Positions 1-64,000 of a stretch of DNA of 64,000 bases are shown here, piece after piece. Source of the DNA: an uncultured Gammaproteobacteria bacterium (GTDB taxonomy: Bacteria > Patescibacteriota > Microgenomatia > UBA8517); NCBI GenBank assembly GCA_964502815.1, contig CAZCXV010000001.1, positions 71,907 through 135,906 on the forward strand, written 5' to 3'. The notes under the pieces were generated by a model. It had not been told where the DNA came from. It searched no databases and saw only the letters and a program-made list of their open reading frames with translations. Position numbers and translations under genes: made by a program. Position 1 is the stretch's first letter; every line of letters begins with the position of its first letter.

Positions 1-1
1 C

Positions 2-739
2 CTGACGGCAGGACTTGACAATTGTGTTGGTGACTATGCAATTATTTTTTCTCTCTATCTTGATCCAATCGAAATACTTCCTGAATTAATCGCAAAACTT
101 AAATCGGGGTCAAACCTGGTTATTGGCAAAATGAAAAAAAATCCTGTCAAACTTTATGGCCCATCAAAGCTAATTGTCTCGATTGCTGAAAAATTTTCCA
201 CGACCGGCTGGATATATCGGAGTAATTATACTCTTGCTTTAGATAGAAAAGCCCTAAATTCTGTCATTAGAACCAGGAGAAAAAGTAGAAATTTTAGCTA
301 TATTAATTCTCTAATTGGTCTTAAGAAATCAACATTAAGATATATGCCAATCACAAAATATAAAAACCTGATTAGACGTGAAGATTTCTTCTCACTCATC
401 ACTACTATTCTTAATACTGCCATATCAAATTCATTTAAGCCAATAAGATATCTTAGTTTAATTGGCATGCTTTTTTCTTTTTTGTATATTTTATATGTAA
501 TCATTATTCTTATCTTGTATTTTTTCTTTGACCAAAAACAACTAATTCCAAAGGGTTGGGTAACCATATCAGTAGTACTAGGAAGTATGTTTTTCCTACT
601 CTTCTCAACTCTGTCTGTAATTTCTGAATATGTAATTAGAACCCTAATTGAAACAAGACAAGAACCATTTTACTTCATCTCAGAGGAAATAAATAAAACT
701 GAAATTTTGCCTAAAAAGAAAAGATTAAATATCATTTAA
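2..739 (+). CDS. GT2 polyprenyl-phosphate glycosyltransferase (GtrB/ArnC/DPM1-like), 5'-truncated by window edge
   Basis: The frame is open from nt 2 upstream of the listed ATG, with no stop. The translated C-terminal region shows two TM helices and a …SVISEYVIRTLIE tail, typical of GtrB/CsbB-like GT2 enzymes. Only the C-terminal ~245 aa are in the window. Confidence 0.55.
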   Translation: MTAGLDNCVGDYAIIFSLYLDPIEILPELIAKLKSGSNLVIGKMKKNPVKLYGPSKLIVSIAEKFSTTGWIYRSNYTLALDRKALNSVIRTRRKSRNFSYINSLIGLKKSTLRYMPITKYKNLIRREDFFSLITTILNTAISNSFKPIRYLSLIGMLFSFLYILYVIIILILYFFFDQKQLIPKGWVTISVVLGSMFFLLFSTLSVISEYVIRTLIETRQEPFYFISEEINKTEILPKKKRLNII

Positions 740-784
740 CACTTTCACTATTGGGTTCAAATCGGGTTCTTTACATTTAATATT

Positions 785-1291
785 ATGGAAGTAAAATTTA
801 TTACAAATATGTCTATCGAAATAGTACAAAAAGTTGAAAAGAAAATTCTCTCAGGGAATTTTCAGAATGCCGAAAACGGAGAAATCATAATGAACCAACT
901 TTTCTATTTAGGTCCAAATACAATTCTCCAAACTCATTTACACACTGGTATGGATGAACATGTTGGACTCGTAGAAGGAGATAGAGTTCTTCTTTACATT
1001 CAAAATGGTAACAACAAAGCTAAAAGAATTGAACTCATAAATGGTCAAACCATTCTCATAAAAGCTAATGTAAAACATACTATAGTCAATCCAAGTAAGG
1101 AAAAAGCCACATTGGCAGCAATAGGAGTTAAGAGAAGAAAAAATGGTGTAACCGAAATGCTTAATACTGAAAACCTTGCTATTACAGATAGCTATTGGCG
1201 ATTGATTGCAGATATTGACCCATACGTTGCTGAAGAAAATTTCAACAATTACATGGAGTCATTTTCCCCTCTCAATAGTGATAGAATCTAA
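785..1291 (+). CDS. cupin-fold protein (possible sugar ketoisomerase/epimerase)
   Basis: 168 aa, His-rich β-barrel-like core (…THLHTGMDEHVGLVEGDRVLL…). Sits in a sugar-modification context. Fold assignment is by pattern only. Confidence 0.3.
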   Translation: MEVKFITNMSIEIVQKVEKKILSGNFQNAENGEIIMNQLFYLGPNTILQTHLHTGMDEHVGLVEGDRVLLYIQNGNNKAKRIELINGQTILIKANVKHTIVNPSKEKATLAAIGVKRRKNGVTEMLNTENLAITDSYWRLIADIDPYVAEENFNNYMESFSPLNSDRI

Positions 1292-1294: not shown

Positions 1295-2884
1295 ATGAAG
1301 ACAGCTGTCATAGGTTACACAGGATTTGTAGGAAGTAACCTAATTAGACAACACAAATTTACAGATTTATACAACTCCCAAAACATAAATTCAATAAGAA
1401 ATAAAGCTTACGATCTAATTGTAAGTGCTGGCGCGACTGCAGACAGGAACATTGCAAATCAAAATTCCAATAAAGACTGGAGAAAAATTAAAACACTTCT
1501 GGATAATTTAAGATACGTTAAAGTCAAACATTTTATTCTGATATCCACTATCGATGTGTACCCAGACAAATCAAATGCCAATGAAGATACTCCAATAAAA
1601 GCAAAAAATTTAAAAGAAGCATATGGTAGAAATCGTTTAAAAATGGAGTTATTTGTTAAACGGAATTTTCCTAAAGTAACAATAATTCGCTGCCCAAACC
1701 TTTATGGAATAAATTTGAAAAAGAATGTGGTATTTGACTTAATTCACAATACGAACTTAGAAAAAAGGCATCGGGACAGCATGCTCCAATATTACAATTT
1801 GGATAACTTATGGAATGACATACAAGAAGCGATAAAAAACAACATTTCTACTATAAATTTATCAGTAGAACCAGTAACAATACGTGAGATCGCCAAAGCA
1901 ACAATGAATACGAAATTTACTAACATTTCCAAAGAGGCTCCCATGTTTTTAAATTTCAAATCTAAGTATGCAGACCTCTGGAAAGGTAAAAACGAATATC
2001 TATACAACAAGAAGGAAACACTTAGAGGACTCAAGAATTTTGTTTTGCAAGAAATAAAACAACTAAAGCGACCAAAGATAGCAATCTCAAATCTCGCCTG
2101 GGATCATTCAGAAGATGTGAAGGTTGTCCCTATACTGCAAAAATATAACATCAATGCAATTGAAATAGCTCCATCAAAAATTTGGCCAGATCCATCAAAA
2201 GCAAAAGTAAGCCAAATTAAAGATTATCGACAATTTTGGAATAAAAGAGGGATAGAAATAATTGCAACTACCCACCTATTATCACCTCACCCTGAGTTAA
2301 CACTTTTTGAAAACAACAAGACAAGAATAAAAAGTCTGAAATACTTAAAGAGTTTAATTAAAATATCCTCAATCCTTGGTGCCAAAGTAATGAATTTTGG
2401 TTCTCCAAAGAATCGTAGAAAAGGATCCCTAACAAACAAAGAAGCGTTTGCAATTTCTCAAAATTTTTTTTCACAAATAGCAAGGGAATGTGAGAAATAT
2501 AACATTAACTTCGCCTTTGAGCCAAACCCACCGATTTACGGAGGTGATTTTATCCATACAACCAAAGAGGCAGTATATTTAGCAAAAAAAGTAAAACATC
2601 AAAACTTTGGAGTGAACATAGATTTAAGCACAATGATTGAAAATAGGGAAGATTTCGAAAATACTATAAAACTTGCAATGCCTTACGCTAAACATTTACA
2701 TATAAGTGAACCTTATTTGGTCGCTATGCCTAAGAAAATATCTGCACATAAAATTCTTTCTCGCGCCATTGACAAAACTGGATTCACAAAATATCTGTCA
2801 ATTGAGATGGCTTTGGATAAGAAAACCAATCATCCTTTGCAAATTGAAAAGACATTAAAATTTATAACAAAAGTATATAATTAA
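1295..2884 (+). CDS. fusion protein: N-terminal NAD(P)-binding epimerase/reductase-like Rossmann domain + C-terminal xylose-isomerase-like TIM-barrel (sugar phosphate isomerase/epimerase) domain
   Basis: N-terminus MKTAVIGYTGFVGSNL carries a GxxGxxG dinucleotide-binding motif. The C-terminal ~270 aa (…ISNLAWDHSED…FAFEPNPP…NIDLSTM…) resembles TIM-barrel sugar isomerase/AP-endonuclease-2 family. 529 aa. Confidence 0.45.
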   Translation: MKTAVIGYTGFVGSNLIRQHKFTDLYNSQNINSIRNKAYDLIVSAGATADRNIANQNSNKDWRKIKTLLDNLRYVKVKHFILISTIDVYPDKSNANEDTPIKAKNLKEAYGRNRLKMELFVKRNFPKVTIIRCPNLYGINLKKNVVFDLIHNTNLEKRHRDSMLQYYNLDNLWNDIQEAIKNNISTINLSVEPVTIREIAKATMNTKFTNISKEAPMFLNFKSKYADLWKGKNEYLYNKKETLRGLKNFVLQEIKQLKRPKIAISNLAWDHSEDVKVVPILQKYNINAIEIAPSKIWPDPSKAKVSQIKDYRQFWNKRGIEIIATTHLLSPHPELTLFENNKTRIKSLKYLKSLIKISSILGAKVMNFGSPKNRRKGSLTNKEAFAISQNFFSQIARECEKYNINFAFEPNPPIYGGDFIHTTKEAVYLAKKVKHQNFGVNIDLSTMIENREDFENTIKLAMPYAKHLHISEPYLVAMPKKISAHKILSRAIDKTGFTKYLSIEMALDKKTNHPLQIEKTLKFITKVYN

Positions 2885-3690: not shown

Positions 3691-4551
3691 TCAAAGACCA
3701 AGATGTTTTTTTGTTAAAGTCCACCTCGGAATATTAGCTACATGTTTCACATATATAGCGCTTTCTGATAACTTTCCATACACAATGTAACTCTTGAGTG
3801 GACCATAGGGAGTTTCATCCAAGCACAGCTGATCCATTTCAGTTAATGGAACCGCAAGAGTACAACTTGATTCCTTTTTATCTTCTGCGTTTTCTCTGGC
3901 TTTGAGAATCTCTGTCACAGTTAGGCCTACTTCGATCAGACAATAGGCAGAAACATAGGCCATGTTAAACGCTCTCCCAAACCCCAATACTGTTATCCTG
4001 TCATTTGAGACTTTAGCACCATACTCTTCTTCAAAACCTCTAGATGCAGTTACTACAGGATTCGGATCTTCGGGTTCCGATTGTTCTTCAAAGCCAAAAG
4101 AGAGTCTTCCTTGATTTAATCCACCACTTTGAGAAATAACATTCAATAACACCTTTTTATCAGCAGTTACAATCAAACAAGCTGCGTAAAGACCGCTAGG
4201 AATCTTTGATTCCCGTGTTTTGACAAAATCCATATTCGTTTTTTGGAATAATTCAGGAGCAACGTGAGGAAAACCCCACAAGGTAAAATAATCAGTCAAT
4301 CGGGTTATAATCCTTACCTTACCATCTGCTCTTTTAATTTTCATTACAGATAATTTGTCGCCGTTAAAATCAGTAGGACGCTTCTCTTTGGTGAGCTCAT
4401 ACGCTTGTCTGAGAATTAAATTCAGCTTTAAATCAGAGATTCCCTTGATTTCAGGATTACCGGTGAGCTTTGGGTCATCTGAAATAAAAATTGAGATGTC
4501 GTTTTCTTTCCAACCAGAAATATTCTTAGTTACTATCTTTTCGTTTTTCAT
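3691..4551 (-). CDS. hypothetical protein, possibly divergent Nudix-fold hydrolase
   Basis: 286 aa. The segment G-x5-E…RGFEEEYGA partially resembles the Nudix box (REuxEExGu) but with an insertion. 26-bp overlap with the upstream galU-like gene. Confidence 0.25.
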   Translation of the reverse strand: MKNEKIVTKNISGWKENDISIFISDDPKLTGNPEIKGISDLKLNLILRQAYELTKEKRPTDFNGDKLSVMKIKRADGKVRIITRLTDYFTLWGFPHVAPELFQKTNMDFVKTRESKIPSGLYAACLIVTADKKVLLNVISQSGGLNQGRLSFGFEEQSEPEDPNPVVTASRGFEEEYGAKVSNDRITVLGFGRAFNMAYVSAYCLIEVGLTVTEILKARENAEDKKESSCTLAVPLTEMDQLCLDETPYGPLKSYIVYGKLSESAIYVKHVANIPRWTLTKKHLGL

Positions 4552-5377
4552 GCTTATTTTTAAATAGGTCCTTAAACAGCTGATTATAACTCAAGTCACT
4601 CCGATATTCAAAGAGTTCAACAAAAGTTTTGGCATAATCATATTTATTACCAGATTCAAAAAATGGTTTCCGATAAATCATTCCATAGGCCAGGTTTTTC
4701 TGACAATATGCATCAACCGCATCTTCCAATACAAATTCCCCTTTACTATTTCGAGTGCTCTTTTCAATATACTCAATAATGTCAGACTCAAGTAGATATC
4801 CATTGCCAAAACAATATGGTGAAACGGGGCCTTTATCACCCGGTTTTTCAAATATTCTTTTAACTTTAACCACATCTTTTGATATTTGTTCAACCTCAGG
4901 AACAGCATACAAATATCTTGCCCTATCAAAAAATGGAAACAAACATATAATTGGCTGATGCATTTTTTTGTATAATTTGATCATCTTTCCTATTCGATTG
5001 TCCTTTCTTAGTCCAAAACTATCCGCCCAAACTATGACAAACGGGTCATTTCCTATGTATTTTTTTGCATCAAGAATTCCTGCAGCGTTACCAATAAAGT
5101 CGTTTTTGTAAGCAACTGAGACTTTTATATTCTTTAGAATCTTTTTTAGATTCTCATCTTTAGTATTTGTAATGTAATCAAGAAGCAGTTGTTTATCTTT
5201 GCTGATAGCCAATATTAACTCTTCAATACCGTTTACCAAAGCCTCTTCCAACACATAATGAATTATTGGTTTATCAATCAAGGGAAACATTTCTTTAGGT
5301 AAAACAGAAGTAATGGGTAAGAATCGAGTTCCCAAACCACCGGCGGCAACAACTAATTTTTTCACTTTCTTTGTCAT
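4526..5377 (-). CDS. galU: UTP--glucose-1-phosphate uridylyltransferase (GalU-like sugar nucleotidyltransferase)
   Basis: N-terminal VVAAGGLGTRFLPITSVLPKEMFPL matches the GalU/sugar-1-P nucleotidyltransferase signature (AAGxGTRxLPxTKxxPKEM). 283 aa. Confidence 0.65.
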   Translation of the reverse strand: MTKKVKKLVVAAGGLGTRFLPITSVLPKEMFPLIDKPIIHYVLEEALVNGIEELILAISKDKQLLLDYITNTKDENLKKILKNIKVSVAYKNDFIGNAAGILDAKKYIGNDPFVIVWADSFGLRKDNRIGKMIKLYKKMHQPIICLFPFFDRARYLYAVPEVEQISKDVVKVKRIFEKPGDKGPVSPYCFGNGYLLESDIIEYIEKSTRNSKGEFVLEDAVDAYCQKNLAYGMIYRKPFFESGNKYDYAKTFVELFEYRSDLSYNQLFKDLFKNKHEKRKDSN

Positions 5378-5449: not shown

Positions 5450-6583
5450 TCAGTAATCTTGTTGAGTATATTCTTCAATTCCTTCCAGGATATCATAAAC
5501 ATTGTCGATCTTTCCTCCCATCACAACATGGAATCCTTTTATGCCATAATCTTTTTTAAAAAGTATTGGCCTACCATCGTTAACCTCATACTCTCTAAGC
5601 ACCGTTCGAACTTCAAAGAGAGATTGTTTATTTTCTATTCCTTTGAGTAGCGGTAAATATCTTTGAGCATCTTTAATCATAAAAATAGCATTTGACTTCT
5701 TTGTAAATTTTTCCAAATCCGGCCATTTGTCGGTCTTGCCATCATCATACCAAGTCTCGTGAACTGTATATCTGACATGATAGAGCGAATGCATATTTTT
5801 GTCCGGAAATGGTAGGGTGCCCCAAAACGGCCCGTCCATGACAGTTATGCCAATGTTTCTTAATTCCTTAGGTGCCTCATATAAAAGCATCTCTGTGAGT
5901 TCATATTTAAAGGAAAACGGTTCAAGTTTTGATGCTTTCAGAATTTTATTTATTTGTGAATAAGTACAATTGTAAACATTTTTTGCTGAAAAATTTCTAC
6001 CATTTTTTGTATTTACCAAAACTCCTTCTTTATATTGTGAAACATTTTCAACCGCATTGTTATAGAGTACTTCTATTTTTGTCTTTTCGATCCTTTCTTT
6101 TAGGATAGCTCTTAATTTTCCTGCATCGAATATTGCTTCATCGACATCAAACACATTCTCAATCAAACTTTGATTAAACAGCTTTCTGAATTTTTCATCA
6201 CTTTGTTTTATCTCACAACCAACTTGGTCACAAAACTTAACAAATTGACTGGCTGTTGTTTTCGAAATAGAAGCTCCAATTGCATATTTCATTGTCACCT
6301 TATCTGCTATAGCTTTTTTGAAGTCTTTTAAAAATAGTGGATAATTGGCATGTGATCTTGCAGCTGTCAAAAAGTTTCTGGGATAGTGATAGCCATTATG
6401 AACTCTTGCTTGATTATTGTATGAGGCTCTCTTAATTAAGTCTTCTGTCTTTTCGATTAAAAGTACCCTCGTAAAATACTTTTTGAGATAGATGGCAATC
6501 ATTGATCCAAACAAGCCACCACCGATAATTATGGCATCATAAATTTGAGCATCACTTTTTCTCACTAAACAAAAATATAACAA
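5450..6583 (-). CDS. FAD-dependent oxidoreductase
   Basis: N-terminal YDAIIIGGGLFGSMIAIYL…RVLLIEK is a Rossmann FAD-binding βαβ motif (GxGxxG followed by an acidic residue). 377 aa. Confidence 0.5.
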   Translation of the reverse strand: MLYFCLVRKSDAQIYDAIIIGGGLFGSMIAIYLKKYFTRVLLIEKTEDLIKRASYNNQARVHNGYHYPRNFLTAARSHANYPLFLKDFKKAIADKVTMKYAIGASISKTTASQFVKFCDQVGCEIKQSDEKFRKLFNQSLIENVFDVDEAIFDAGKLRAILKERIEKTKIEVLYNNAVENVSQYKEGVLVNTKNGRNFSAKNVYNCTYSQINKILKASKLEPFSFKYELTEMLLYEAPKELRNIGITVMDGPFWGTLPFPDKNMHSLYHVRYTVHETWYDDGKTDKWPDLEKFTKKSNAIFMIKDAQRYLPLLKGIENKQSLFEVRTVLREYEVNDGRPILFKKDYGIKGFHVVMGGKIDNVYDILEGIEEYTQQDY

Positions 6584-7086: not shown

Positions 7087-7821
7087 TTACACTTTTTGAC
7101 ACGAAAACACAATATGGCTGAAGGGTTTACCTTGATGTGGATGCACAATCTTCTTAATTATATAACCGTTCTGTTTTAGTGTCTTTGTCCACCCCTTCTC
7201 ACTTCGGTACTTAATTTTTGTATCAATTAACTTCCTTTCAAAAATAACAGGTACAGTAAAAATGTCAGTCAGCCAAGTAAAAATAAATTTCCACAATGGC
7301 TTCTCTATAATCTCAGCCACTACCAACAAACCACCTTTTTCCAACTTTGTTGAAATTATCTTAAGCATTTTTTCCTGTAACTTTCTTTGGGAAAGGTGAT
7401 GCAATACATGAATTAGTAAAAAACAGTCTGCTTTTGGCAAATCTACATCTAAAATGTCAGCATTCTGGAAAGACACATTTTTAATACCCTTATGCGCCTC
7501 CTTTATTCGTTTAATGTTCAATTCGATTCCCAGTACTTTTCTCTTATTTTCAAGAATCCCTAAGTAATTTGCCAGCAGTCCGTCTCCACTACCCAAATCC
7601 ACAATGAACCCTTTTTTAGGAACTAACTCAGCGATCTCCTCAAAAGGCATATCCCAAAGTCTGATTGTTTGGAAAAGTGACGTAAATTTATCTGGAGAAT
7701 CATCATATAGCGCAAGTATGCTTTGGATTTCCCCGCTGTAAGCTGGCCTGCCAAAAAAGAAAAAGTAAACCTGAAAAAACAGTCCAACTAAAAATTTCAG
7801 AGTTTGCCCCACAAATCCCAT
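7087..7821 (-). CDS. class I SAM-dependent methyltransferase
   Basis: Motif I VDLGSGDGLLANYLG and a downstream acidic motif (…GIELN…) are present. 244 aa. Confidence 0.6.
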   Translation of the reverse strand: MGFVGQTLKFLVGLFFQVYFFFFGRPAYSGEIQSILALYDDSPDKFTSLFQTIRLWDMPFEEIAELVPKKGFIVDLGSGDGLLANYLGILENKRKVLGIELNIKRIKEAHKGIKNVSFQNADILDVDLPKADCFLLIHVLHHLSQRKLQEKMLKIISTKLEKGGLLVVAEIIEKPLWKFIFTWLTDIFTVPVIFERKLIDTKIKYRSEKGWTKTLKQNGYIIKKIVHPHQGKPFSHIVFSCQKV

Positions 7822-8793: not shown

Positions 8794-9813
8794 TTATTTT
8801 TTCCTTAGATCATCAGATACTCTTTTAAAATCTAATATGAATTTTCTTATATTTGTCGGCTTTGAAAGATTTGTGAATACTTGTTGATCTGATACTGCTC
8901 TCAGTTTTTGAACTATAGTTCTATTTTTAAGAGTATTTGTAATGTTTGTGAGATTCCAGAAAACGGCTTTTGCGATCATTTTTGCACTCTTTAACTGTCC
9001 CTTAAGCAAAAAGGCTATAGATATACCAACAGAAAAAACAAGGTGAAGAGGTAATATATATAATAGATTTGGAAAAGATAAATTTTTAATAAGTGAAATA
9101 ATTCTATTTTTATAGTAGTGGAAGTTAATGTTACCAACGTCAAGCCTTTTAATTGTAAAACCAACTTTATGTTTTATTTTCGCTTCTGGAAAAAAGAGCA
9201 CTCGCCAACCAGCAAGCCAGACTCTCCAGCAAAAGTCACTTTCTTCAAAATATGAAACAAAATAATCGTCAAATAAACCAAGTTTATCTACAACGCTTTT
9301 TCGAATAAGCATACAAGCGCCTTTCGCAGAGAAAATTTCTTTTTCTTTCCCAAATTCAGGTGAGTCTTTTTGGCCAAAACCCCAATGCTCTAAAAAACCA
9401 ATTTTAGTAAAATACGATCCTGCGTTATCAAGGTATCCTGGTTTATCCATCATAAATATCTTTGGTTGCAAAACTCCGATTGTTTTATCGGATTCCATTT
9501 TAGAAACCAAAATATTAAGGAAATTTTTACTTACCTTAGTATCATTATTTAAAAGAAGAACATACTTCCCAGATGTTTTTTTGACACCCTGGTTGTTCGC
9601 AGGCGCAAATCCCAAGTTGTCTCTATTTTTTATAGTAACAGTTTTAATGTTTTTAGCTCTAAAGTTATCGCTCCCATCAGTAGACCCATTATCAACAACA
9701 ATAAGTTCACAATTTTTGTAGGCAATCTCTTCAAGTGAAGAAAGGCAGTCCTTAAATATCTGTCCTCCATTCCAGTTAACAATAATAATTGAAACCAATG
9801 GGTTATTTGTCAT
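8794..9813 (-). CDS. GT2 family glycosyltransferase
   Basis: Motifs VSIIIVNWNGG, VVDNGSTDGS and LLNNDT, the rhamnosyl/WcaA-like GT2 pattern. 339 aa. Confidence 0.6.
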   Translation of the reverse strand: MTNNPLVSIIIVNWNGGQIFKDCLSSLEEIAYKNCELIVVDNGSTDGSDNFRAKNIKTVTIKNRDNLGFAPANNQGVKKTSGKYVLLLNNDTKVSKNFLNILVSKMESDKTIGVLQPKIFMMDKPGYLDNAGSYFTKIGFLEHWGFGQKDSPEFGKEKEIFSAKGACMLIRKSVVDKLGLFDDYFVSYFEESDFCWRVWLAGWRVLFFPEAKIKHKVGFTIKRLDVGNINFHYYKNRIISLIKNLSFPNLLYILPLHLVFSVGISIAFLLKGQLKSAKMIAKAVFWNLTNITNTLKNRTIVQKLRAVSDQQVFTNLSKPTNIRKFILDFKRVSDDLRKK

Positions 9814-55163: not shown

Positions 55164-56884
55164 TATTCATTTTTCCCGGAAAAAATATAAAATGCTGGTT
55201 CTCCAGAAGGATAGGTAATGGCTTTAATAAGTTTTAAGTCTGCCGGTGTTCTTTCTGGTTCCAGTATCAAGTTAACATTCACTTCTTTTGCAGATGCCAG
55301 ATACAAAGTTTTACTATCCAATACTTTTCCCCAGTCATACAAACCACCAACAGGCGAGCCAAAGTAGAATTTATTAATATGCGATACCTTTCCAAAACCA
55401 GCAAGTTCTACATCCCGCCCTATTGGGAAATCTTTCTGCCAGGAAGATGGATCGTATTGATATAAACTTGCAAAAAATATCCATGGTGGTTCGCCTCTAG
55501 TTGAAATTGCAACTTTGTCATAGTTTCCATCAATCTCATTTACAGACTGGATTGCCTGTTTAAAGCCTGCATGCCACCACCTTTCACTATACGTAGGATT
55601 ATGCACCCAGTAATTGTGTTGATATGAGAAAAAGAATAAAGCGAAAATAAATACATAGCCAGCCATGGCAAGTTTTCTGTACTTTTTGTTTTTAACTAGG
55701 TTTAGGCCTTCCAGAATTCCATATGAAACTAATATTGCTAAGGCTGGCAACATCAAGATAAGTCTGGTGGCATGATTGCCACCATCTCTGGTAATTGCTG
55801 CTGGGACGATTGAGGCTAAGGCTAGAAAGCCAATAACCAATTTTAGTTTTGTACTTATACTTTTGCTAGCAAAGAAAAGCACTATACCAAAAAGCAAGGC
55901 CACTGCCTCTATTTTGTAAAATAACCCCATACCCTCAATAGTGTGCCTAGGGTTTGGATCCCCACTATTAAATAAGAAGTCAGCAGAAAAAGGCTGGAGA
56001 TAGTTATTTAATACCTTTTCTCCCCAGAAAGTAAATTTATTGTGCACAAGTCTATCTAGTTTGGTTGGATTTAGGCCAGTTCCAGTTTCTCCCCTGGCTC
56101 TGGCGTCAATTCCTCTGGCAGTTCCTACTTCTGGTTCAGTTGTTGGGTCGCTAAAAACACTAATATAGCCAAACCTTTGGGCTCCACCTCCAAACACTGT
56201 ACTGTAAGCAATTGGCCCTCCCACTACTAAAAAGGCAATCAAAGCAAAAACTAAGTATTTCACTTTTACCTTAAATATTTCTTGCCTGTAAAGAAGAAAC
56301 AAAAACACCAATAGAAGTGGTGTAAACAGTTTTGCAGTACTATAAACCCAAGGGGTGAGCCCAAAACAAACCGCCGAAAGCCAAAAATGCTTTCCATCTT
56401 CTTTTAAGCCTTTAAACAAGAAATACAATCCCAAAATCAAAAAAAATAGAAGTTGAGTTACTTCAAAACCGGCTCGGGAATATTGAATATGCCAAGGAGA
56501 AAAAGTTAAAACTACTGCAGCCAAAAGCGCCCACTTCTCACTGCCAAAAAGTTGTTTTACCAGTAAATAAAGTGCATAAATTCCAAGTATGCCAAAAATG
56601 GCAGCTGGCAGCCTTACACCATATTCACTTAAACCAAAAACAGCAACTGTTGGCACAGCAGAGTACAAATATAATGGTGTTCGCCACTCAGCCAGTGAAT
56701 GAAAATGAAGTGGCATAAAGTTGCCATAGTAGTCTTTTCCAGTTTTTAAAATTGAATAGGCTTGATAGCCAACATCCAACTCATCACCAAACATACTCAC
56801 TGGAACTTTATCTAGAGCAGACATTCTTAGGAAGGTTGCAATAACTAGAATAGTTAGAAGTATCCAAGAAGATTTAATTTTCAT
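55163..56884 (-). CDS. GT-C glycosyltransferase, PMT/ArnT-like (GT39/GT83), paralog 7 of 7
   Basis: Motifs …MFGDELDVGYQAYSILKTGKDY… and FSPWHIQYSRAGFE. Start placed at MKIKSSWILL (ATGA overlap with the upstream GT2 stop), which matches the N-terminal length of the paralogs. The track ATG is at 56917. Confidence 0.55.
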   Translation of the reverse strand: MKIKSSWILLTILVIATFLRMSALDKVPVSMFGDELDVGYQAYSILKTGKDYYGNFMPLHFHSLAEWRTPLYLYSAVPTVAVFGLSEYGVRLPAAIFGILGIYALYLLVKQLFGSEKWALLAAVVLTFSPWHIQYSRAGFEVTQLLFFLILGLYFLFKGLKEDGKHFWLSAVCFGLTPWVYSTAKLFTPLLLVFLFLLYRQEIFKVKVKYLVFALIAFLVVGGPIAYSTVFGGGAQRFGYISVFSDPTTEPEVGTARGIDARARGETGTGLNPTKLDRLVHNKFTFWGEKVLNNYLQPFSADFLFNSGDPNPRHTIEGMGLFYKIEAVALLFGIVLFFASKSISTKLKLVIGFLALASIVPAAITRDGGNHATRLILMLPALAILVSYGILEGLNLVKNKKYRKLAMAGYVFIFALFFFSYQHNYWVHNPTYSERWWHAGFKQAIQSVNEIDGNYDKVAISTRGEPPWIFFASLYQYDPSSWQKDFPIGRDVELAGFGKVSHINKFYFGSPVGGLYDWGKVLDSKTLYLASAKEVNVNLILEPERTPADLKLIKAITYPSGEPAFYIFSGKNE

Positions 56885-57678
56885 CCAAATAATTGTAGCA
56901 CTTTTTGCCTGGTCCAAAGAACGAAGTTAAACAAATAATGACCAAGTAAACCATGATAAATTTTACTTGAAGGAATTAATCTTCGCCATTGATTTTCACT
57001 GTCGGCCAGTTTCCTACCACTTGCTCCGTGATGATGAACAACTTCTGACGATGGCAGATAGTATATTTTCATACCTTTTCTTTTTATTTGCCTGCAGTAA
57101 TCAAAATCTTCAAAAAACATAAAGTATTTTTCATTCAGCCCGCCTACTTCTTTCAGCGTCTTTGGAGTAATTAAAAATGATGCCATGACAGCAACTTCCA
57201 CTTCTGAAGGACTTTCTCCCTCAGGGACATATTTATCCAAAATATGTTTTCGTCCCAACCAATATTGTTTTATTGCTCTTTCAACTGTTGGAAATCTAAA
57301 TATCGATGCCTGAAATGAGCCATCAATATTTAGTAGTCTTGAAGCCACAGCTCCAGCATCGGGAGTCCTTTTGGCAAAGTCTATTAGATTTTGTATTGAA
57401 TCTTTTTTTACTTCAGTGTCAGAATTCAAAAGTAGAACATATTCACCCTTGGCTTTTTTAATCCCCAAATTATTTCCCTTGGCAAAGCCCAAATTTTTAT
57501 CTGCTTCAATTAAGGTAATATTCCTGTTTTCTCTTAATTTTTCAAGTGATCCATCACTTGAGCCATTGTCTATAACTATCACTTCAAACTCTTCTTTTGG
57601 GGAAAACTTATAGATAGAAGTAAGGCAGGCTAGAGTTAGGTCTTTAGTATTAAAGTTGACTATTATGATGGAAACCAT
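56881..57678 (-). CDS. GT2 family glycosyltransferase
   Basis: Motifs VSIIIVNFNTKDLT, VIDNGSSDGS and LLNSDTEV. 265 aa. Confidence 0.6.
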   Translation of the reverse strand: MVSIIIVNFNTKDLTLACLTSIYKFSPKEEFEVIVIDNGSSDGSLEKLRENRNITLIEADKNLGFAKGNNLGIKKAKGEYVLLLNSDTEVKKDSIQNLIDFAKRTPDAGAVASRLLNIDGSFQASIFRFPTVERAIKQYWLGRKHILDKYVPEGESPSEVEVAVMASFLITPKTLKEVGGLNEKYFMFFEDFDYCRQIKRKGMKIYYLPSSEVVHHHGASGRKLADSENQWRRLIPSSKIYHGLLGHYLFNFVLWTRQKVLQLFG

Positions 57679-57687
57679 ACATCTAGT

Positions 57688-58584
57688 TTAACTAAATTTA
57701 GCAAAAATTGCTTCGTCTGAAATAGTTGCGTCTTTTTTCTCTCTTCTTCTAAGTTTTGACACTAAGCCAAATTTTAGAAGAGCGAGAAGAAAAATCCTCG
57801 CGTAACCTGGATGTCTTAATATTCTTTTTAGAAGTCCCTGAATATGTTTTCTAAATATTCGTTGGCTGGTTATGTTTTTCCAAATCGTTAGAAGCTCGTT
57901 TCTTTGCCTAATTGAAAGGACATAGCTTGTTTTAAGTTTCGAAATAACTGCTTCATGTTCATGGACTACTTTTGCATTTGGCTCCCACAAAAGCTTGTAG
58001 CCTCTTTTTTGAGCTCTATATGAAAGATCAACATCTTCCCAGTAAAAAGGCGACAGCAGTTTTTCATCTAACCCCCCAAGTTTCATCCAAATGCTTCTTT
58101 TAAAAACCCCGCTTCCTCCACTTATCCAAAAGGAATTAGTTGCCTTGTCTGTTTCCTTGCCTGGAATGAAATTAATAAAACCCCCTTTAAAACTGGCTCC
58201 AGCTGGACCAAAGCCTTTTTCGTGCAAAGAAACACCAAACACTTTTTCATTGCCAAAATGTGGCAAAACAAATTGCAGGAAATCTTCTGTCACCGAAACG
58301 TCGGTATTAAGAAGACACAAAAGCTCGCTCTTGGCAGCTCTAGCACCAGTATTGACTGTTGCAGAAAAGCCTCTGTTTTTAGTGTGCTTGATGAGCCTAA
58401 TTTTGTCTTTAAAGTTTTTAAGCAAAAAATCGAGCGAATTGTCTGTTGATTTATCATCAATAATAATTATTTCCTGAATATTATTTTTTTTGTTTTCCAA
58501 AGCTTTAACTACCGATAGCAGATGTTTTGGCATAATACTCTCGCCGTTAAAATTTGGGATAATTATTGACACCGAGTTAATCAT
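57688..58584 (-). CDS. GT2 family glycosyltransferase
   Basis: Motifs VSIIIPNFNGES, IIDDKSTDNS and LLNTDVSV. 298 aa. Confidence 0.6.
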   Translation of the reverse strand: MINSVSIIIPNFNGESIMPKHLLSVVKALENKKNNIQEIIIIDDKSTDNSLDFLLKNFKDKIRLIKHTKNRGFSATVNTGARAAKSELLCLLNTDVSVTEDFLQFVLPHFGNEKVFGVSLHEKGFGPAGASFKGGFINFIPGKETDKATNSFWISGGSGVFKRSIWMKLGGLDEKLLSPFYWEDVDLSYRAQKRGYKLLWEPNAKVVHEHEAVISKLKTSYVLSIRQRNELLTIWKNITSQRIFRKHIQGLLKRILRHPGYARIFLLALLKFGLVSKLRRREKKDATISDEAIFAKFS

Positions 58585-59246
58585 ATTTTTCTGGCCTTCA
58601 CTATGTTTAGCATACCCAAGATAAACTTATCGTCTCTTTCAACTTTTAAGCCCGACTTTGCAACCACCTTGGCTAAAGGGTTTTCTTTTGAAAAAGACTG
58701 AACATGACAGTCTTTCCAAATTCTAGCCCACCAAAACTTTGTTACAAAGCCCCAAATAATTGAGAACAATAAATTGTCAGAAGGTACTAAAAAAATTGCA
58801 TAACCACCTTTTTTCAAGACTCTTTTTACTTCTCTAAAAACAATTAAGGGCTCAAAAACATGTTCTAAAACTTCCAGGGCAAAAACAGCATCAAATGAAT
58901 TGGCTGGAAAATCCAATTCATGAGCGTCGCCCGTCTTAAATTGCATTTTTTTGTTTTTCTGCCAGTGATTATTGGCCCAGGAGACAGAAGATTTCAAGAC
59001 ATCAATACCAATCAAGCTTTTGGCCTTAGTTCTGTCTAAAATAACTTTACTAAAAACTCCATCTGCAGAACCAATATCCAAAACCTTCCCACTTTTAGTT
59101 ACCTCAATCAATTCTCCAACTTTCTTGAATCGTCTTTGATGCCAATATCTTTGCAAAATATTTCTTTTGATTGAAGCATAATACCAATCAGGCGGAACAT
59201 TTTCATGCAGCTGGCTTGCATTTCTGGTAGTTTTACTATTTGCCAT
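58581..59246 (-). CDS. class I SAM-dependent methyltransferase
   Basis: Motif I VLDIGSADGVFSKVIL. Downstream …ALEVLEHV…. 221 aa. Confidence 0.55.
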   Translation of the reverse strand: MANSKTTRNASQLHENVPPDWYYASIKRNILQRYWHQRRFKKVGELIEVTKSGKVLDIGSADGVFSKVILDRTKAKSLIGIDVLKSSVSWANNHWQKNKKMQFKTGDAHELDFPANSFDAVFALEVLEHVFEPLIVFREVKRVLKKGGYAIFLVPSDNLLFSIIWGFVTKFWWARIWKDCHVQSFSKENPLAKVVAKSGLKVERDDKFILGMLNIVKARKI

Positions 59247-60790: not shown

Positions 60791-63155
60791 ATAGCCAAGT
60801 ATACCCCAAAGCTAACAGCAAAATCAGCACTGAAAATAGACTAATTTTTAATCCCAGATAAAAAGAATTTGGTTGATATACAAATCTGACTATATGTTTT
60901 CCTGGGGGAATGACAACTGCCCTGTAATTATAATTTGCCTTATAGATTTCTGTTTCTTTGTCATCAACAAATGCTTGCCAATCAGGATAAAATGCTTCAG
61001 ACACAAATAATAGCCCCGCTTTTTCAGTTTCAACATTGAGAATACTTCTCTGAGGGGAATAATTTAGATATTCTACTGTTGATTTTGCAAACCGGAAATC
61101 CTTTGCTAGTTCGAGATCTTTTTCCAAAACTATCTTTTTGGAATAGGGATAGTTTACCTGAAGCAACTTTTCTAAAGCTTTCTTTCCATCCGATTCTATT
61201 TCCCAATCGTAAACCATAAAAGCCCTATTAAGAGCAGTTGTACTTTCTAAAACTGCAACGCTTTTGTCCTCAAAGGCAATATTAAATCTTTTAGTATCAA
61301 ACCTTTCAGGGATTTTTCCCTCAGGAGATGGTTTGCCACTAGAATCTTCTTTTAAAACTAAATAGTATTTGGTATTTACCAAATCAAGAAGTGGTGAGAC
61401 ATCATTATCTACTATGCCATATCTACCAACCGGATGAGACTCGGCAGTTCCACTATTGATAGCTGAAACAAATCTAGAAATACCCAGAGGATGAAAAGTA
61501 TCATAACCCTCTACCGTCTCCAAACCATATGCCATCCTGATATTTGAAGGAATTACTTTTGCCCCTGTTGTCCTAAAAGGTTTTTCTTGTGCCATCAAAA
61601 ATGAAATAACCGGAGTTTGTGGATAGATAAAGTCCCTTGGCGAGAATGGCGTGAACTTAAATGCAAAATAGAAAAGCTCCAAAATACAAAGGCCGATCAA
61701 CAATATTTTCAACCGTGTCAAAAACATAATTACAAAAAAAGACAAAACCAAGACACCAAAAGGCAAAAGCAAATTCCTGGCTGCGGTCCTAAAAACATCA
61801 ATTCCTCCGTGAGTAATAATTCCTTTTAAGCTAAAGGCATAAACTCCGAAGCCAACTAGCAATAAAAGAAGAACAGCAACAACCAAGATTTTGTATTTGT
61901 TTTTTATTTTTGCCTCAAGAACATCAAAACCGAAACCAGCCAACAGAGCACCAGCTGCAGTAAATAGTATAGTTGCCCGATGTGCAGAGTTTGCCTTCAT
62001 GCCAAGAATATCATTGGACCAAATAAACGTTGATAATGGAGTTGGAAAAGACAACAACAGGGAAACTACCATTAACAGAAAACTAAAGAATATTTCTTTT
62101 TTCATCTTTATTTTCACCAGAGAAACCATTGACAAAATAAAAGCTACAACGCCAATATAACCAGTATTTGAGGTGTAGTCTTGTGGCCCCCAATAATTTC
62201 TTGTCGAGTGATTACCAAAGAAGTCTGAAGAAATGAATGTAATAACCTTTTGCCAAGGCAGGAATGCCCAAGCAAAAGGATGGGGTTCAAAACTTCTTTG
62301 GGAATTTTTGATAAGTTCTAAAGAAGGTAATATTTGAACAGCAGAAAGTCCTAGAGAAAATAGACAAAATACTGCTAATAAAGCTGTTTTTGAAATTATT
62401 TGTTTATCTTTCCAAACTCTCACCAGCCACAAAAGTCCCATGGCAACAGCGGCATAAACACTGGTTTGGGTATAGCCAGAAAAAAATTGTAATGCCAAAA
62501 AGACAGACAACAATACTCCGTCAGAAAATTTCTTTTTTGTCAAAAGTCTGTCTTCAAACAATAAAACCAAAGGAATAAAGGCAGAAGCTAGAGTATGACC
62601 ATTCCACTGAGAAAAAATAATATTGTAGCCGGAAAAAGCAAAGACAATTCCTCCAAGAATTGCTCCAAGTTTTGATACTTTCCAATACCTTAAAAGAAAA
62701 TAGGTAAATGCTGCAGCCAATAGATGCTGCAATATTATCTGCATGCTCCAAGCAGTTGTTTTATCGAAAAGAAAGTACAAAAAACTGGTAGGTGAAAAGG
62801 GAGCTGACTGAAAATTGGCTAAAAGCGGCGAACCAGTCAAAATATAGGGATTCCACAAAGGCCAAATTCCTTGTTTGAAAAGTTCCATTGCAAATGTCTG
62901 CATTGGATAGGTATAAGAAACAACATCTGTAGTAATAGGGTTTTTTACAGGAACACCGGCAACATATCCCCATTTGTAGTCAAGCCAGGGGTAATAAACA
63001 CCAACAATAAAATCTCCAGGCAAAGGAACTTGGTTTTTTAAGATTACTTTCCAAAAGAAAGACAGGACTATTAAAATAAGTACAAAGATTGGAAGTAGAA
63101 ACTTAAAGAAGCGCGAGTAGTTCTTTTTCAAATCTTGCATAGCTAAATTTATCAC
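60783..63155 (-). CDS. YfhO-family membrane glycosyltransferase (GT-C-like)
   Basis: 790 aa polytopic protein. N-terminal …GDFIVGVYYPWLDYKWGYVAGVPVKNP…FAMELFKQGIWPLWNPYILTGSPLLANFQSAPFSP… resembles the conserved YfhO N-terminal region. Recognition is from memory, so moderate. Confidence 0.45.
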   Translation of the reverse strand: MINLAMQDLKKNYSRFFKFLLPIFVLILIVLSFFWKVILKNQVPLPGDFIVGVYYPWLDYKWGYVAGVPVKNPITTDVVSYTYPMQTFAMELFKQGIWPLWNPYILTGSPLLANFQSAPFSPTSFLYFLFDKTTAWSMQIILQHLLAAAFTYFLLRYWKVSKLGAILGGIVFAFSGYNIIFSQWNGHTLASAFIPLVLLFEDRLLTKKKFSDGVLLSVFLALQFFSGYTQTSVYAAVAMGLLWLVRVWKDKQIISKTALLAVFCLFSLGLSAVQILPSLELIKNSQRSFEPHPFAWAFLPWQKVITFISSDFFGNHSTRNYWGPQDYTSNTGYIGVVAFILSMVSLVKIKMKKEIFFSFLLMVVSLLLSFPTPLSTFIWSNDILGMKANSAHRATILFTAAGALLAGFGFDVLEAKIKNKYKILVVAVLLLLLVGFGVYAFSLKGIITHGGIDVFRTAARNLLLPFGVLVLSFFVIMFLTRLKILLIGLCILELFYFAFKFTPFSPRDFIYPQTPVISFLMAQEKPFRTTGAKVIPSNIRMAYGLETVEGYDTFHPLGISRFVSAINSGTAESHPVGRYGIVDNDVSPLLDLVNTKYYLVLKEDSSGKPSPEGKIPERFDTKRFNIAFEDKSVAVLESTTALNRAFMVYDWEIESDGKKALEKLLQVNYPYSKKIVLEKDLELAKDFRFAKSTVEYLNYSPQRSILNVETEKAGLLFVSEAFYPDWQAFVDDKETEIYKANYNYRAVVIPPGKHIVRFVYQPNSFYLGLKISLFSVLILLLALGYTWLYD

Positions 63156-64000
63156 TTTCTTGTCTTACCTGCCTGGCAAGATCACGCATTTTTTTGTTAT
63201 CTGCTAATAGTTTCTCAGTTAATTGGGTCAATTCTCCTTCTTTTTGCCAAAGAAATCCTGAGTAATTATTTTTGACAATCTCCTTGTGACCACCTGCTGT
63301 ATAAACCAGAGGGATACAACCTGCTGCCATTGCTTCAACTAAAGAAATGCCAAAGTGCTCAACTTGCTTTGGATTTCTGTGTTCGTCAACGCCGAAGCCA
63401 GCTGCAGACCAAAAAAAAATAGAACTGCCTACTAAGCTTTTCAAGTCTTTAAAACTTGGACTTTCAATTATTTTAATAGGATAAGTTTTGGCAGCTTCCT
63501 TCAATTTGGTAAGAAAATCTCCCGCACCAACCTCTACTCCACCAGCAAGAATTAGTTTCCAATCAATATGACCATTGTCATGAAACCTTTTAAAAGCTTC
63601 AATTAAGATATCTTGTCTTTTTGACTGAGTTAGTTGGGAAAACCTACCGACATAAATTATTTGGTTTTCCTTTTTCAAAGCTTTAAATTTGGCTACATCA
63701 ACAGGAGGATATAGGACAACACTATCAATGTTGTATTCTTCATCAACTATTTTCTTGGTGAAGTTTGAATTGCAAATAATTTTGTTTATCCTAAAAAACT
63801 TCATTTTATTGAGGAGAGTATTACCATTGACATCGTTAAATGGAAATTGAAAGTGTAGAAAGTTTTTGCGAGCTTTTAAAGTTGGCACACTGCCATCAGA
63901 CACCCAAAACATCAGATCATAGCCATCTCCTCTTTTAGTATCAGGAACAATATTAATATTAGAAAGATTCAAACCAAATCTATCCTCAAGCTTCTTTTTG
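63103..64000 (-). CDS. GT4 family glycosyltransferase (GT-B), 5'-partial (N-terminus beyond window end)
   Basis: C-terminal GT4 motif …GISLVEAMAAGCIPLVYTAGGHKEIV…. The frame stays open upstream of the listed ATG to the window edge (…KKKLEDRFGLNLSN…), so the gene likely continues past nt 64000. Confidence 0.5.
   Translation of the reverse strand, partial: KKKLEDRFGLNLSNINIVPDTKRGDGYDLMFWVSDGSVPTLKARKNFLHFQFPFNDVNGNTLLNKMKFFRINKIICNSNFTKKIVDEEYNIDSVVLYPPVDVAKFKALKKENQIIYVGRFSQLTQSKRQDILIEAFKRFHDNGHIDWKLILAGGVEVGAGDFLTKLKEAAKTYPIKIIESPSFKDLKSLVGSSIFFWSAAGFGVDEHRNPKQVEHFGISLVEAMAAGCIPLVYTAGGHKEIVKNNYSGFLWQKEGELTQLTEKLLADNKKMRDLARQVRQESDKFSYARFEKELLALL

Follow-up and report, generated by a model that had tools for sequence, protein, structure and literature searches.

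What does a bacterium build with a locus in which glycosyltransferases make up more than half of the genes, and does it do so by one pathway or by several? The question is raised by a 64-kb stretch of contig CAZCXV010000001.1 (hereafter the window, meaning the whole stretch that was analyzed), which comes from a genome assembly titled as an uncultured Gammaproteobacteria bacterium. Its closest relatives belong to the Candidate Phyla Radiation (CPR)/Patescibacteria, bacteria that are presumed to depend on attachment to a host cell and about whose surface chemistry very little is known. The answer that we favor, and to which we give about an even chance, is that the window represents a locus for cell-envelope glycan assembly, native and passed on by vertical descent, in an ultra-small groundwater bacterium, a Woesebacteria-like member of the Microgenomates. 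The locus would have at least two conserved modules and would operate as a sequential assembly line at the outer face of the membrane.

The window contains 57 non-nested open reading frames (ORFs) of at least 100 amino acids. Among them are 33 glycosyltransferases, namely 12 of family GT2, 4 of family GT4 and 17 membrane proteins of the GT-C fold. Glycosyltransferases typically account for about 1–2% of the genes of a genome, and the share observed here is far above chance expectation. Curated Pfam cut-offs were passed by 26 of the 33 proteins, using PF00535, PF00534 and PF13231/PF02366/PF09586 as proxies, while support for the other seven comes from profiles of orthologues, from comparing profile with profile or from a modelled structure. 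An earlier note, made from the sequence without database searches, had counted 12 GT2, 4 GT4 and about 17 GT-C proteins and had read the locus as a glycosylation locus; the counts were confirmed (on Pfam, NCBIfam, orthologue, hhalign and structural evidence), and the glycosylation call is supported (at the Pfam, NCBIfam and structure levels).

Eleven of the GT2 genes passed the PF00535 cut-off. The twelfth, g01, has a reading frame that is open from window base 2 and matches positions 158–304 of the 308 positions of the NCBIfam PgfS profile (E = 5.6e-8). The open frame, together with a C-terminal PgfS/ArnC match with two transmembrane helices, identifies g01 as a GtrB-type GT2 cut by the window edge. 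The GtrB/ArnC/PgfS architecture, a GT2 domain followed by two C-terminal transmembrane helices, is shared by g01, g10 and g13. The g10 protein aligned with positions 1–304 of the 308 of PgfS (247 bits; ArnC 173 bits; PF00535 111 bits), and the best NCBIfam match of g13 was ArnC (positions 6–295 of 316, 174.5 bits; PF00535 121 bits). Neither reached the NCBIfam equivalog cut-off (247 against 500 bits for PgfS, 174 against 529 for ArnC), and both are of the PgfS/ArnC type without being PgfS or ArnC themselves. Four short GT2s, g04, g17, g34 and g47, resemble DPM1, AglJ or PpgS. The transmembrane scan and NCBIfam thus agree with the earlier proposal of at least three GtrB/ArnC-like GT2s with C-terminal transmembrane helices (g01, g10 and g13) besides short DPM1-like ones. 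PF00534, the GT4 domain, was found in g28, g33, g37 and g57. The last of these (289 amino acids, TTG start) has a full C-terminal Rossmann half and a very short N-terminal half, and there is an in-frame stop no more than 28 nt from the nearby edge of the window; g57 may have a misplaced start, a truncation or a frameshift.

The 17 GT-C candidates were grouped into paralogue families by all-against-all BLASTP: family A (g40, g41, g42, g44, g45, g50 and g51; 26–35% identical), family B (g23 and g29; 40% identical), family C (g21 and g22; 28% identical, E = 5e-40), a YfhO pair (g43 and g56) and the singletons g15, g36, g48 and g55. The underlying duplications are old rather than recent tandem copies. 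All 17 proteins have 6–10 transmembrane segments in a hydropathy scan. The PMT_2, PMT or YfhO cut-offs were passed by 11 polytopic proteins; sub-threshold Pfam matches were obtained for g21, g36 and g55, and none for g15, g22 and g48. Orthologues of g36 match PIG-V (PF04188) in 13 of 31 cases (best E = 1.3e-11) and PMT_2 in 7 of 31. The orthologue profile of g48 matches glycosylphosphatidylinositol (GPI) mannosyltransferase I in the PDB (E = 3.7e-8), and the AlphaFold2 (AF2) model of g48 (pLDDT 89.3, pTM 0.90) has yeast ALG6 as its top structural match (E = 3.9e-6, TM score 0.71), followed by PIG-U, GPI mannosyltransferase I, ALG3, ArnT, ALG9 and STT3. The AF2 models of g48 and g41 are both all-helical membrane bundles. 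In hhalign comparisons with family A, the g55 family scored 98.9% (E = 2.5e-17), the g15 family 97.9%, with its D32/D33 motif aligned onto the DE motif of family A, and the g21/g22 family 95.4%. These confident links come from family-level profiles only, as hhalign runs with the single sequences of g22, g46, g49 and g55 gave weak alignments to family A, and a PDB sequence search with the g36, g21/g22 and g55 profiles gave no match.

An acidic residue follows the first transmembrane helix in all GT-Cs except g22. D39/E40 are invariant in family A, D32 is invariant and D33 near-invariant in the g15 family, and the corresponding motifs are NFDGEHY in g36, HGD in g48, YDQARD in g55, SWD in g23 and g29, and D-F in g43 and g56. 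At this site g22 and its orthologue on a groundwater contig (L089:418-1806) have WIPA where g21 and its orthologue have WE/WD, and a possible role for the g22 lineage is that of a partner to g21 without catalytic activity. Two small membrane proteins without a family, g46 and g49, share the stretch NYFF.G..PR and are located directly upstream of the sister GT-Cs g45 and g50, respectively. They align weakly and collinearly to the middle part of the family-A GT-Cs (hhalign probabilities of 19 and 48%) and are devoid of the first transmembrane helix and the DE loop; one possibility is a duplicated two-gene module whose small member is a truncated partner subunit that does not catalyze transfer.

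To place the locus, the profile of the seven family-A GT-Cs was scanned against one genome per GTDB species, which yielded 579 relatives, and the loci of the best 80 were compared. All of these 80 are Patescibacteria/Microgenomates metagenome-assembled genomes (MAGs), including placeholder-titled MAGs with the same synteny, and none of the matches was a self match at 100% identity. Woesebacteria are the nearest among them (50–65% identity), followed by Blackburn-, Ames-, Shapiro-, Collier- and Levybacteria. The named best matches of g41 and g48 at NCBI are likewise Microgenomates, Woesebacteria or Patescibacteria. The earlier suggestion of a CPR lineage is thus in line with homologue taxonomy, both in the best 80 of the 579 loci and in the NCBI names for g41 and g48, and a Woesebacteria-like Microgenomates source is supported by these sequence relationships. 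Many of the MAG records that carry the Microgenomates-type array, at 50–62% identity, are titled 'uncultured Gammaproteobacteria bacterium' (binchicken/SRP*_co* TPA records; L006, L008, L011, L013, L019, L020 and others), and they include chromosomes of 0.62 and 0.81 Mb. Because of the shared synteny and these chromosome sizes, we read these titles as placeholders for the taxonomy, or as mislabels.

Every one of the 80 loci has several GT-Cs, typically 5–10 per full locus of ~21 kb. Best-hit mapping revealed a kept order, g33(GT4)-g34(GT2)-g35(Wzx)-g36-g37(GT4)-(g38)-g39(GT2)-g40-g41-g42-(g43)-g44 ... g48-g51-(g52-g53), which is still recognizable in Shapiro- and Collierbacteria at 36–41% identity. 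Side by side and in collinear order, g42-g41-g40-g39 occur in 51 of the 80 loci, although contig ends truncate many of these. Best hits were obtained in 69 loci for g39 and in 37 for g48, and orthologues of g51 in 51. Core orthologues are 45–65% identical, as compared with 26–35% between paralogues, which indicates that the array is older than the divergence of these Microgenomates lineages. Orthologues of g30, one of two DUF5667 proteins of the window (the other is g08) that each consist of an N-terminal transmembrane or signal segment and a helical body, recur beside the conserved core in loci L006, L011, L032 and L034; these proteins could serve as acceptor, scaffold or chain-length factor.

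Could the locus instead be an O-antigen- or capsule-like island for surface polysaccharide, gained by horizontal transfer and variable between strains under diversifying selection, be it against phage or for host switching? Such an origin would fit g45, g46, g47, g49 and g50, which have a best hit in just 0–11 of the 80 loci and look like a lineage-specific addition (g44, by comparison, is widely conserved among the relatives, while g45 is specific to the source lineage). It would also fit an 86.7-kb contig in the European Nucleotide Archive (ENA; L001) that stops within g23 and in which several proteins are not identical to those of the window, a hint at strain variation. However, GC content is uniform, the window has no gene for an integrase, a transposase or a tRNA, and the core order and one-to-one orthologues are kept from Woesebacteria to Shapiro- and Collierbacteria. 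An acquired island is therefore highly improbable and, for the core, largely refuted; conserved synteny and even GC argue in favor of a locus that is probably native and ancient.

A fixed order of paralogues with one-to-one orthologues across the class speaks for a single conserved pathway of several steps and against interchangeable parallel modules. The earlier note had proposed the latter, several parallel systems of three components each. Gtr, CsbB-GtcA-YfhO and PgfS-PgfM work in this way as single-sugar decoration systems, and the window might accordingly hold several independent sets of GT2, flippase and GT-C, each attaching a single sugar to its own acceptor. The synthases and GT-Cs that this requires do exist: three membrane-anchored GtrB/ArnC/PgfS-type GT2s, four short DPM1/AglJ/PpgS-like GT2s and about eight GT-C families, with two YfhO-type GT-Cs and a module conserved as its own unit. 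The flippases do not, since no GtrA/GtcA (PF04138) or ArnE/F was matched by Pfam or NCBIfam in the 57 ORFs, where g46 and g49 are unclassified small membrane proteins and Wzx is present once only. Moreover, the membrane-anchored synthases are located 30–40 kb away from the main GT-C array, whose seven family-A paralogues stand in a fixed, ancient order by Wzx, GT4 and GT2 genes, as is typical of oligosaccharide assembly. We therefore consider a set of parallel decoration systems unlikely.

The separately conserved unit (module L, ~8.8–21.5 kb) was recognized on L089, an independent groundwater contig that shares the gene neighbors of this part of the window: two family-C GT-Cs, a methyltransferase, a YdjC protein, a second methyltransferase, a GT2, a fusion protein, a GtrB-like GT2, two more GT2s and a sulfotransferase. 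The fusion protein (P0142; 1,052 amino acids, L089:6255-9413) is the nearest relative of g15, with 40% identity, in a family that is rare (104 representatives among 1.84 billion proteins). In it, a formyltransferase domain of the g16 type is fused N-terminally to a GT-C/CBM32 membrane protein of the g15 type, a Rosetta-stone arrangement; in the window, g16 is located directly upstream of g15 with an overlap of 14 nt. The g16 protein retains the formyltransferase motif N-x-H ... D and has NCBIfam matches to ArnA-FT, Fmt and dTDP-sugar formyltransferase. A DegT aminotransferase (g26) and a 4,6-dehydratase (g27) are encoded near the module. In the window as a whole, Pfam and NCBIfam recovered the tailoring enzymes and the flippase that had been predicted from the sequence: five S-adenosylmethionine (SAM) methyltransferases, a sulfotransferase, a formyltransferase, the DegT aminotransferase with its PglF/PseB-type dehydratase, a YdjC protein, two SGNH hydrolases and a Wzx-type flippase.

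Among 30 relatives of g15, F5_F8_type_C is found in 12, PMT_2 in 6 and CBM_AftD in 6, and the family profile matches CBM32 domains in the PDB. Discoidin/CBM32-type C-terminal domains, clear in the g15 family and weak in g29, recall the architecture of mycobacterial AftD and suggest glycans as the acceptors of these enzymes. This bears on the possibility that the GT-Cs carry out general protein O-glycosylation of the protein O-mannosyltransferase (PMT) type on Ser/Thr targets, with paralogues specialized for classes of secreted substrates such as S-layer, pilins or wall-associated proteins. The Pfam matches to PMT/PMT_2, the DE motif in the first outer loop, the NCBI naming of orthologues as 'glycosyltransferase family 39', the streptococcal PgfS/PgfM precedent and the presence of STT3, PglB and Pmt4 among the structural matches are all compatible with it. 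The g41 model (pLDDT 86.5), which matched STT3, ArnT, AglB and PglB at E ~1e-8, is about equally near to STT3, ArnT, AglB, PglB, ALG12, Pmt4, AftA and Emb (TM score ~0.5, 10–15% identity). However, the likeness to true PMTs is remote (TM score ~0.3–0.43). In addition, the co-conserved Wzx, GT4s, GT2s and ALG6/PIG-like GT-Cs act on lipid-linked glycans in known systems, the CBM32/discoidin domains of g15 and g29 suggest glycan rather than peptide acceptors, and an acceptor protein was not identified. We regard protein O-glycosylation of this kind as quite improbable.

Returning to the sequential assembly line, we infer its lipid carrier, membrane topology, order of action and sugars, as well as its acceptor, which may be a secondary wall polymer, a lipoglycan or a surface glycoprotein. 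The core array (module R, ~33–58.6 kb) would follow the logic of the eukaryotic ALG pathway or of mycobacterial lipomannan and lipoarabinomannan (LM/LAM) synthesis. The GT4s g33 and g37 and the GT2s g34 and g39 would build a polyprenyl-linked oligosaccharide in the cytoplasm, Wzx (g35) would move it to the outer face, and a series of outward-facing GT-Cs (g36, g40-g42, g44, g51, g43 and g48) would extend or transfer the glycan. By analogy with the behavior of their families, the GT-Cs would act at the extracytoplasmic face with polyprenyl-phosphate-linked donors. These monosaccharide donors could be supplied by DPM1/GtrB-type GT2s, with g47 acting locally and g01, g10 and g13 from elsewhere in the window; g04, g17, g34 and also g01 are the weaker candidates for this role. 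Module L might constitute an Arn-like branch for a modified amino sugar, in which the g27 dehydratase and g26 aminotransferase nearby would be followed by the g16 N-formyltransferase, physically coupled to the g15 GT-C/CBM32 protein. The GT2s g13 and g17, the candidate deacetylase or deformylase g19, two methyltransferases, the sulfotransferase and the GT-Cs g21 and g22 would also belong to this branch, and the methyl-, sulfo-, formyl- and acyl-modifying enzymes would tailor the product. Only tentatively do we go further and suggest an ancient, class-wide line in which flipping by Wzx is followed by at least eight GT-C steps in a set order, some of them by enzymes remotely related to ALG6, PIG-M and PIG-V. 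Together these would yield a single large, conserved and heavily tailored envelope glycan, with methyl, sulfo, N-formyl or N-acyl groups. An Arn-like branch would be part of it, with a cytoplasmic formyltransferase physically coupled to its GT-C (the two are one fused protein in a relative), and the product would be a prime candidate interface for attachment of CPR bacteria to their hosts.

Several points weigh against a sequential assembly line in this lineage. None of the 57 ORFs passed the Pfam thresholds for a WecA/PglC-type initiator, Wzy, a WaaL/PglL ligase or an oligosaccharyltransferase of the STT3/PglB family, so that the proposed pathway lacks its first and last steps, or these are encoded elsewhere. 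Likewise, Pfam and NCBIfam detected no flippase for polyprenyl-phosphate monosaccharides among the ORFs, and the coding density of 99% leaves no room for an unlisted flippase gene in the window. Family A appears, from the g41 model (TM score ~0.5), to be a GT-C group with no close characterized structural neighbor, and its donor and acceptor can therefore not be read from homology. The fixed order of the paralogues would be equally compatible with paralogues that serve different acceptors. Finally, the lineage placement rests on homologue taxonomy, the window being devoid of rRNA, tRNA and ribosomal-protein genes.

The 57 ORFs cover 99% of the window at an even GC content of 0.32–0.38, with a mean gene size of ~1.1 kb, which does not bear out the short genes that had been claimed. 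The 43 same-strand junctions comprise 6 ATGA/GTGA overlaps, 1 TAATG, 16 other overlaps (based on longest-ORF starts) and 16 gaps of at most 10 nt, so the tight coupling noted before is real. Stop codons are TAA in 34, TGA in 14 and TAG in 9 ORFs; as all three are in use, an alternative genetic code is ruled out and the standard code, as originally assumed, applies. A tRNA scan found zero genes and an Rfam scan zero matches in the window, and a mobile element was rejected as Pfam scans of the 57 ORFs revealed neither integrase nor transposase. Groundwater metagenome assemblies (ENA PRJNA292723, JGI and Logan) independently reproduce parts of the window, and an assembly chimera was rejected because three independent assemblies span 1.6–9.2, 21.5–36 and 48–61 kb. 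The non-identical proteins of the 86.7-kb ENA contig suggest co-occurring strain variants. The 127-nt overlap of g24 and g25 is a longest-ORF artefact, as ENA calls g24 at 179 amino acids.

At the left edge of the window, g03 is an unusual fusion of a partial short-chain dehydrogenase/reductase (SDR) domain (residues 23–155) and a complete TIM barrel (residues 281–526). It is adjoined by genes for a cupin, a GalU-like nucleotidyltransferase and an FAD oxidoreductase, and this neighborhood may be an unusual sugar-nucleotide tailoring set. The neighboring g05 protein contains a stretch, G...E...RGFEEEYGA, seen by eye, which may be Nudix-box-like. The features of the window are compiled in Table 1.

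Table 1. Genes of the 64-kb window, with predicted products and the evidence on which each prediction is based.
Gene	Predicted product	Position	Strand	Evidence
g01	GtrB/PgfS-like GT2, C-terminal part, 2 transmembrane helices	2..739	+	NCBIfam PgfS; transmembrane scan
g02	Cupin-domain protein, candidate for sugar-nucleotide modification	785..1291	+	Cupin_2 E 2.7e-5, below cut-off
g03	Partial SDR epimerase/dehydratase fused to xylose-isomerase-like TIM barrel	1295..2884	+	Pfam Epimerase, AP_endonuc_2; NCBIfam sugar-epimerase weak
g04	Short GT2, weakly DPM1/AglJ/PpgS-like, 1 C-terminal transmembrane helix	2894..3682	+	PF00535 28.8 bits; AglJ, DPhHxTase, PpgS matches
g05	Soluble protein, no family, 286 amino acids	3691..4551	-	Pfam, NCBIfam scans empty
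g06	GalU-like sugar-1-phosphate nucleotidyltransferase	4526..5377	-	PF00483; TIGR01099 galU 144 bits, below cut-off
g07	FAD-dependent oxidoreductase, DAO family	5450..6583	-	PF01266 E 3e-15
g08	DUF5667, N-terminal signal or transmembrane helix	6607..7077	-	PF18915
g09	SAM methyltransferase	7087..7821	-	Methyltransf_11 and related families
g10	GtrB/PgfS/ArnC-type polyprenyl-phosphate glycosyltransferase, 2 C-terminal transmembrane helices	7869..8789	+	PF00535, PgfS, ArnC
g11	GT2, rhamnosyltransferase/PgaC-like class	8794..9813	-	Pfam, NCBIfam
g12	GT2	9803..10657	-	Pfam
g13	ArnC/GtrB-type polyprenyl-phosphate glycosyltransferase, 2 C-terminal transmembrane helices	10700..11647	+	PF00535, ArnC
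g14	Sulfotransferase	11658..12365	+	PF03567 31.2 bits vs 22-bit cut-off; orthologue in L089
g15	GT-C-like, at least 8 transmembrane helices, D32 after the first, C-terminal discoidin/CBM32	12376..14778	-	Family-level matches; no own Pfam match
g16	Sugar-type N-formyltransferase	14765..15571	-	PF00551
g17	Soluble GT2, catalytic domain PgfS/ArnC/DPM1-like	15575..16303	-	Pfam, NCBIfam
g18	SAM methyltransferase	16287..17150	+	Pfam
g19	YdjC-family carbohydrate deacetylase	17147..18052	+	PF04794 141 bits; HpnK, ChbG matches
g20	SAM methyltransferase	18036..18665	+	Pfam
g21	GT-C-like, family C	18634..20094	+	PMT_2 E 9e-4, sub-threshold; hhalign
g22	GT-C-like, family C, no acidic residue after first transmembrane helix	20091..21539	+	Paralogue of g21; hhalign
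g23	GT-C (PMT_2), family B	21517..23526	-	Pfam
g24	Soluble protein without family match	23475..24137	-	Pfam, NCBIfam scans
g25	SGNH/GDSL hydrolase, N-terminal transmembrane helix	24011..25090	-	Pfam; transmembrane scan
g26	DegT/PglE/ArnB-type sugar aminotransferase	25087..26169	-	PF01041 307 bits
g27	PglF/PseB-type UDP-GlcNAc 4,6-dehydratase	26154..27569	-	PF02719 381 bits; PseB 206 bits
g28	GT4	27566..28720	-	PF00534
g29	GT-C (PMT_2), family B, weak C-terminal discoidin-like domain	28724..30691	-	Pfam
g30	DUF5667	30714..31280	-	Pfam; synteny
g31	SAM methyltransferase	31258..32052	-	Pfam
g32	SGNH hydrolase, weak AlgX-like match	32118..33209	+	Pfam
g33	GT4, conserved core	33162..34298	-	Pfam; synteny
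g34	Short GT2, conserved core, weakly PgfS/PpgS-like	34300..35070	-	Pfam, NCBIfam; synteny
g35	Wzx-type (MOP) flippase, conserved core, 10 transmembrane helices	35057..36322	-	PF13440, PF01943; synteny
g36	PIG-V-like GT-C, conserved core	36326..37462	-	Orthologue PF04188; NFDGEHY
g37	GT4, conserved core	37443..38534	-	Pfam; synteny
g38	Short-chain dehydrogenase	38540..39223	-	Pfam, NCBIfam
g39	GT2, conserved core	39227..40132	-	Pfam; synteny
g40, g41, g42	Family-A GT-Cs (PMT_2/PMT, DE after first transmembrane helix), heart of the array	40138..45222	-	Pfam; synteny; g41 model
g43	YfhO-type GT-C	45197..46828	-	PF09586 48.6 bits
g44, g45	Family-A GT-Cs	46825..50084	-	Pfam; BLASTP
g46	Protein with 4 transmembrane helices, unclassified	50089..50664	-	Transmembrane scan; weak hhalign
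g47	Soluble AglJ/DPM1-like GT2, candidate polyprenyl-phosphate-hexose synthase inside the array	50684..51370	+	PF00535 123 bits; AglJ 118 bits
g48	ALG6/PIG-M-like GT-C	51367..52620	-	Profile; AF2 model
g49	Protein with 7 transmembrane helices, unclassified; weak collinear likeness to family-A columns 124-398	52644..53480	+	Transmembrane scan; hhalign
g50	Family-A GT-C	53482..55137	+	Pfam; BLASTP
g51	Family-A GT-C	55163..56917	-	Pfam; BLASTP; orthologues in 51 loci
g52, g53	GT2s, rhamnosyltransferase/MftF-like class	56881..58584	-	Pfam, NCBIfam; synteny
g54	SAM methyltransferase	58581..59246	-	Pfam
g55	Divergent GT-C, YDQARD after first transmembrane helix	59249..60790	-	Weak PMT; hhalign
g56	YfhO-type GT-C, 790 amino acids	60783..63155	-	PF09586 82.8 bits
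g57	GT4, short N-terminal half, start uncertain	63103..63972	-	PF00534 82.5 bits

The locus is typical of its lineage rather than an oddity of the source genome, and it is uncharacterized. The public annotation of the family-A orthologues reads 'glycosyltransferase family 39' or 'ArnT family', and no description of conserved GT-C arrays, of the two modules or of the formyltransferase::GT-C fusion was found by full-text searches of open-access papers. Related complete chromosomes among the best 80 of the 579 relatives measure 0.6–0.9 Mb, from which it can be estimated that ~64 kb devoted to one glycosylation locus would correspond to 7–10% of the genome. The class-conserved core provides a concrete and bounded set of genes for the question of CPR surface composition, while the divergent GT-C families and the formyltransferase::GT-C fusion add to a superfamily with few characterized bacterial members. 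Nothing is overturned by these findings, as a paper in mBio (2025; PMC12153355) states that an abundance of glycosyltransferases, which may serve in attachment, is documented for CPR and DPANN organisms.

None of the parts is new in kind: the synthases are of the GtrB/PgfS type, the GT-Cs are PMT_2, YfhO or PIG/ALG-like, the flippase is a Wzx, and the tailoring enzymes include the DegT/PglF pair. With the three-component systems (GtrA/GtrB/GtrX; CsbB-GtcA-YfhO; PgfS-PgfM1/PgfM2), the locus shares GtrB/PgfS-type GT2s with two C-terminal transmembrane helices and GT-Cs of the YfhO and PMT_2 types. It differs from them in the absence of GtrA/GtcA from the window, in having 17 GT-Cs instead of one or two, in the fixed array that these form with Wzx, GT4 and further GT2s, and in NCBIfam scores below the equivalog cut-offs.

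The Arn system (PmrHFIJKLM), which adds 4-amino-4-deoxy-L-arabinose (L-Ara4N) to lipid A, is built from the same kinds of parts, to which the ArnB-like g26, g16 with its likeness to the N-terminal domain of ArnA, the ArnC-like g13, the candidate de-N-acylase g19 and the GT-C g15 correspond. However, the complete set is not present in the window, which has only the formyltransferase domain, DegT, the ArnC-like GT2 and the GT-C; the ArnA decarboxylase domain, a NodB-type ArnD (PF01522) and ArnE/F are missing, with YdjC in the place of ArnD. Furthermore, no score reaches an equivalog cut-off, g15 bears CBM32 and does not qualify as an ArnT equivalog, the dehydratase belongs to the PglF/PseB (UDP-GlcNAc) type, and in a relative the formyltransferase and the GT-C form one fused protein. 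Lipid A synthesis is not known from CPR bacteria.

Clusters of the Wzx/Wzy type for O-antigen and capsule have in common with the locus a Wzx flippase (here g35), GT4s and GT2s, sugar-nucleotide tailoring and O-acyl/SGNH enzymes. In contrast to these clusters, Wzy, Wzz/polysaccharide co-polymerase, WaaL and an initiating phosphoglycosyltransferase were not detected in the window and may lie elsewhere in the genome; GT-Cs dominate, and the core is conserved across the class instead of being hypervariable.

The synthesis of mycobacterial and corynebacterial arabinogalactan and LM/LAM (Emb, AftA-D, MptA-C and PimE, with decaprenyl-phosphate-arabinose and polyprenyl-phosphate-mannose (PPM) donors) would, by analogy, be similar in employing many GT-Cs on the outer face with polyprenyl-phosphate-sugar donors. 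C-terminal carbohydrate-binding modules are another common trait, with CBM_AftD in the g15 family, and the fold matches include AftA, Emb and AftD. The relation is one of fold only and to another lineage, DprE1/E2, a PPM synthase equivalog and galactan machinery were not identified in the window, and its GT-Cs are gathered in one locus with Wzx. The dolichol pathway (ALG GT4s, RFT1, DPM1/ALG5, ALG3/9/12/6/8/10 and STT3) and the GPI mannosyltransferases differ in that they are related to the locus only by analogy and remote homology, and no STT3-family oligosaccharyltransferase was found above threshold in the window. They show the same division of labor between cytoplasmic GT4s and GT2s, a MOP flippase, DPM1-like donor synthases and GT-Cs on the far side of the membrane, and yeast ALG6 is the best fold match of g48, whose profile matches GPI mannosyltransferase I, as PIG-V does the orthologues of g36. 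If our tentative proposal of a class-wide line is true, it would be a bacterial counterpart of the dolichol pathway of the endoplasmic reticulum or of mycobacterial LAM synthesis in genomes of less than 1 Mb, with a lipoglycan, a wall polymer or the glycan of a glycoprotein as its product.

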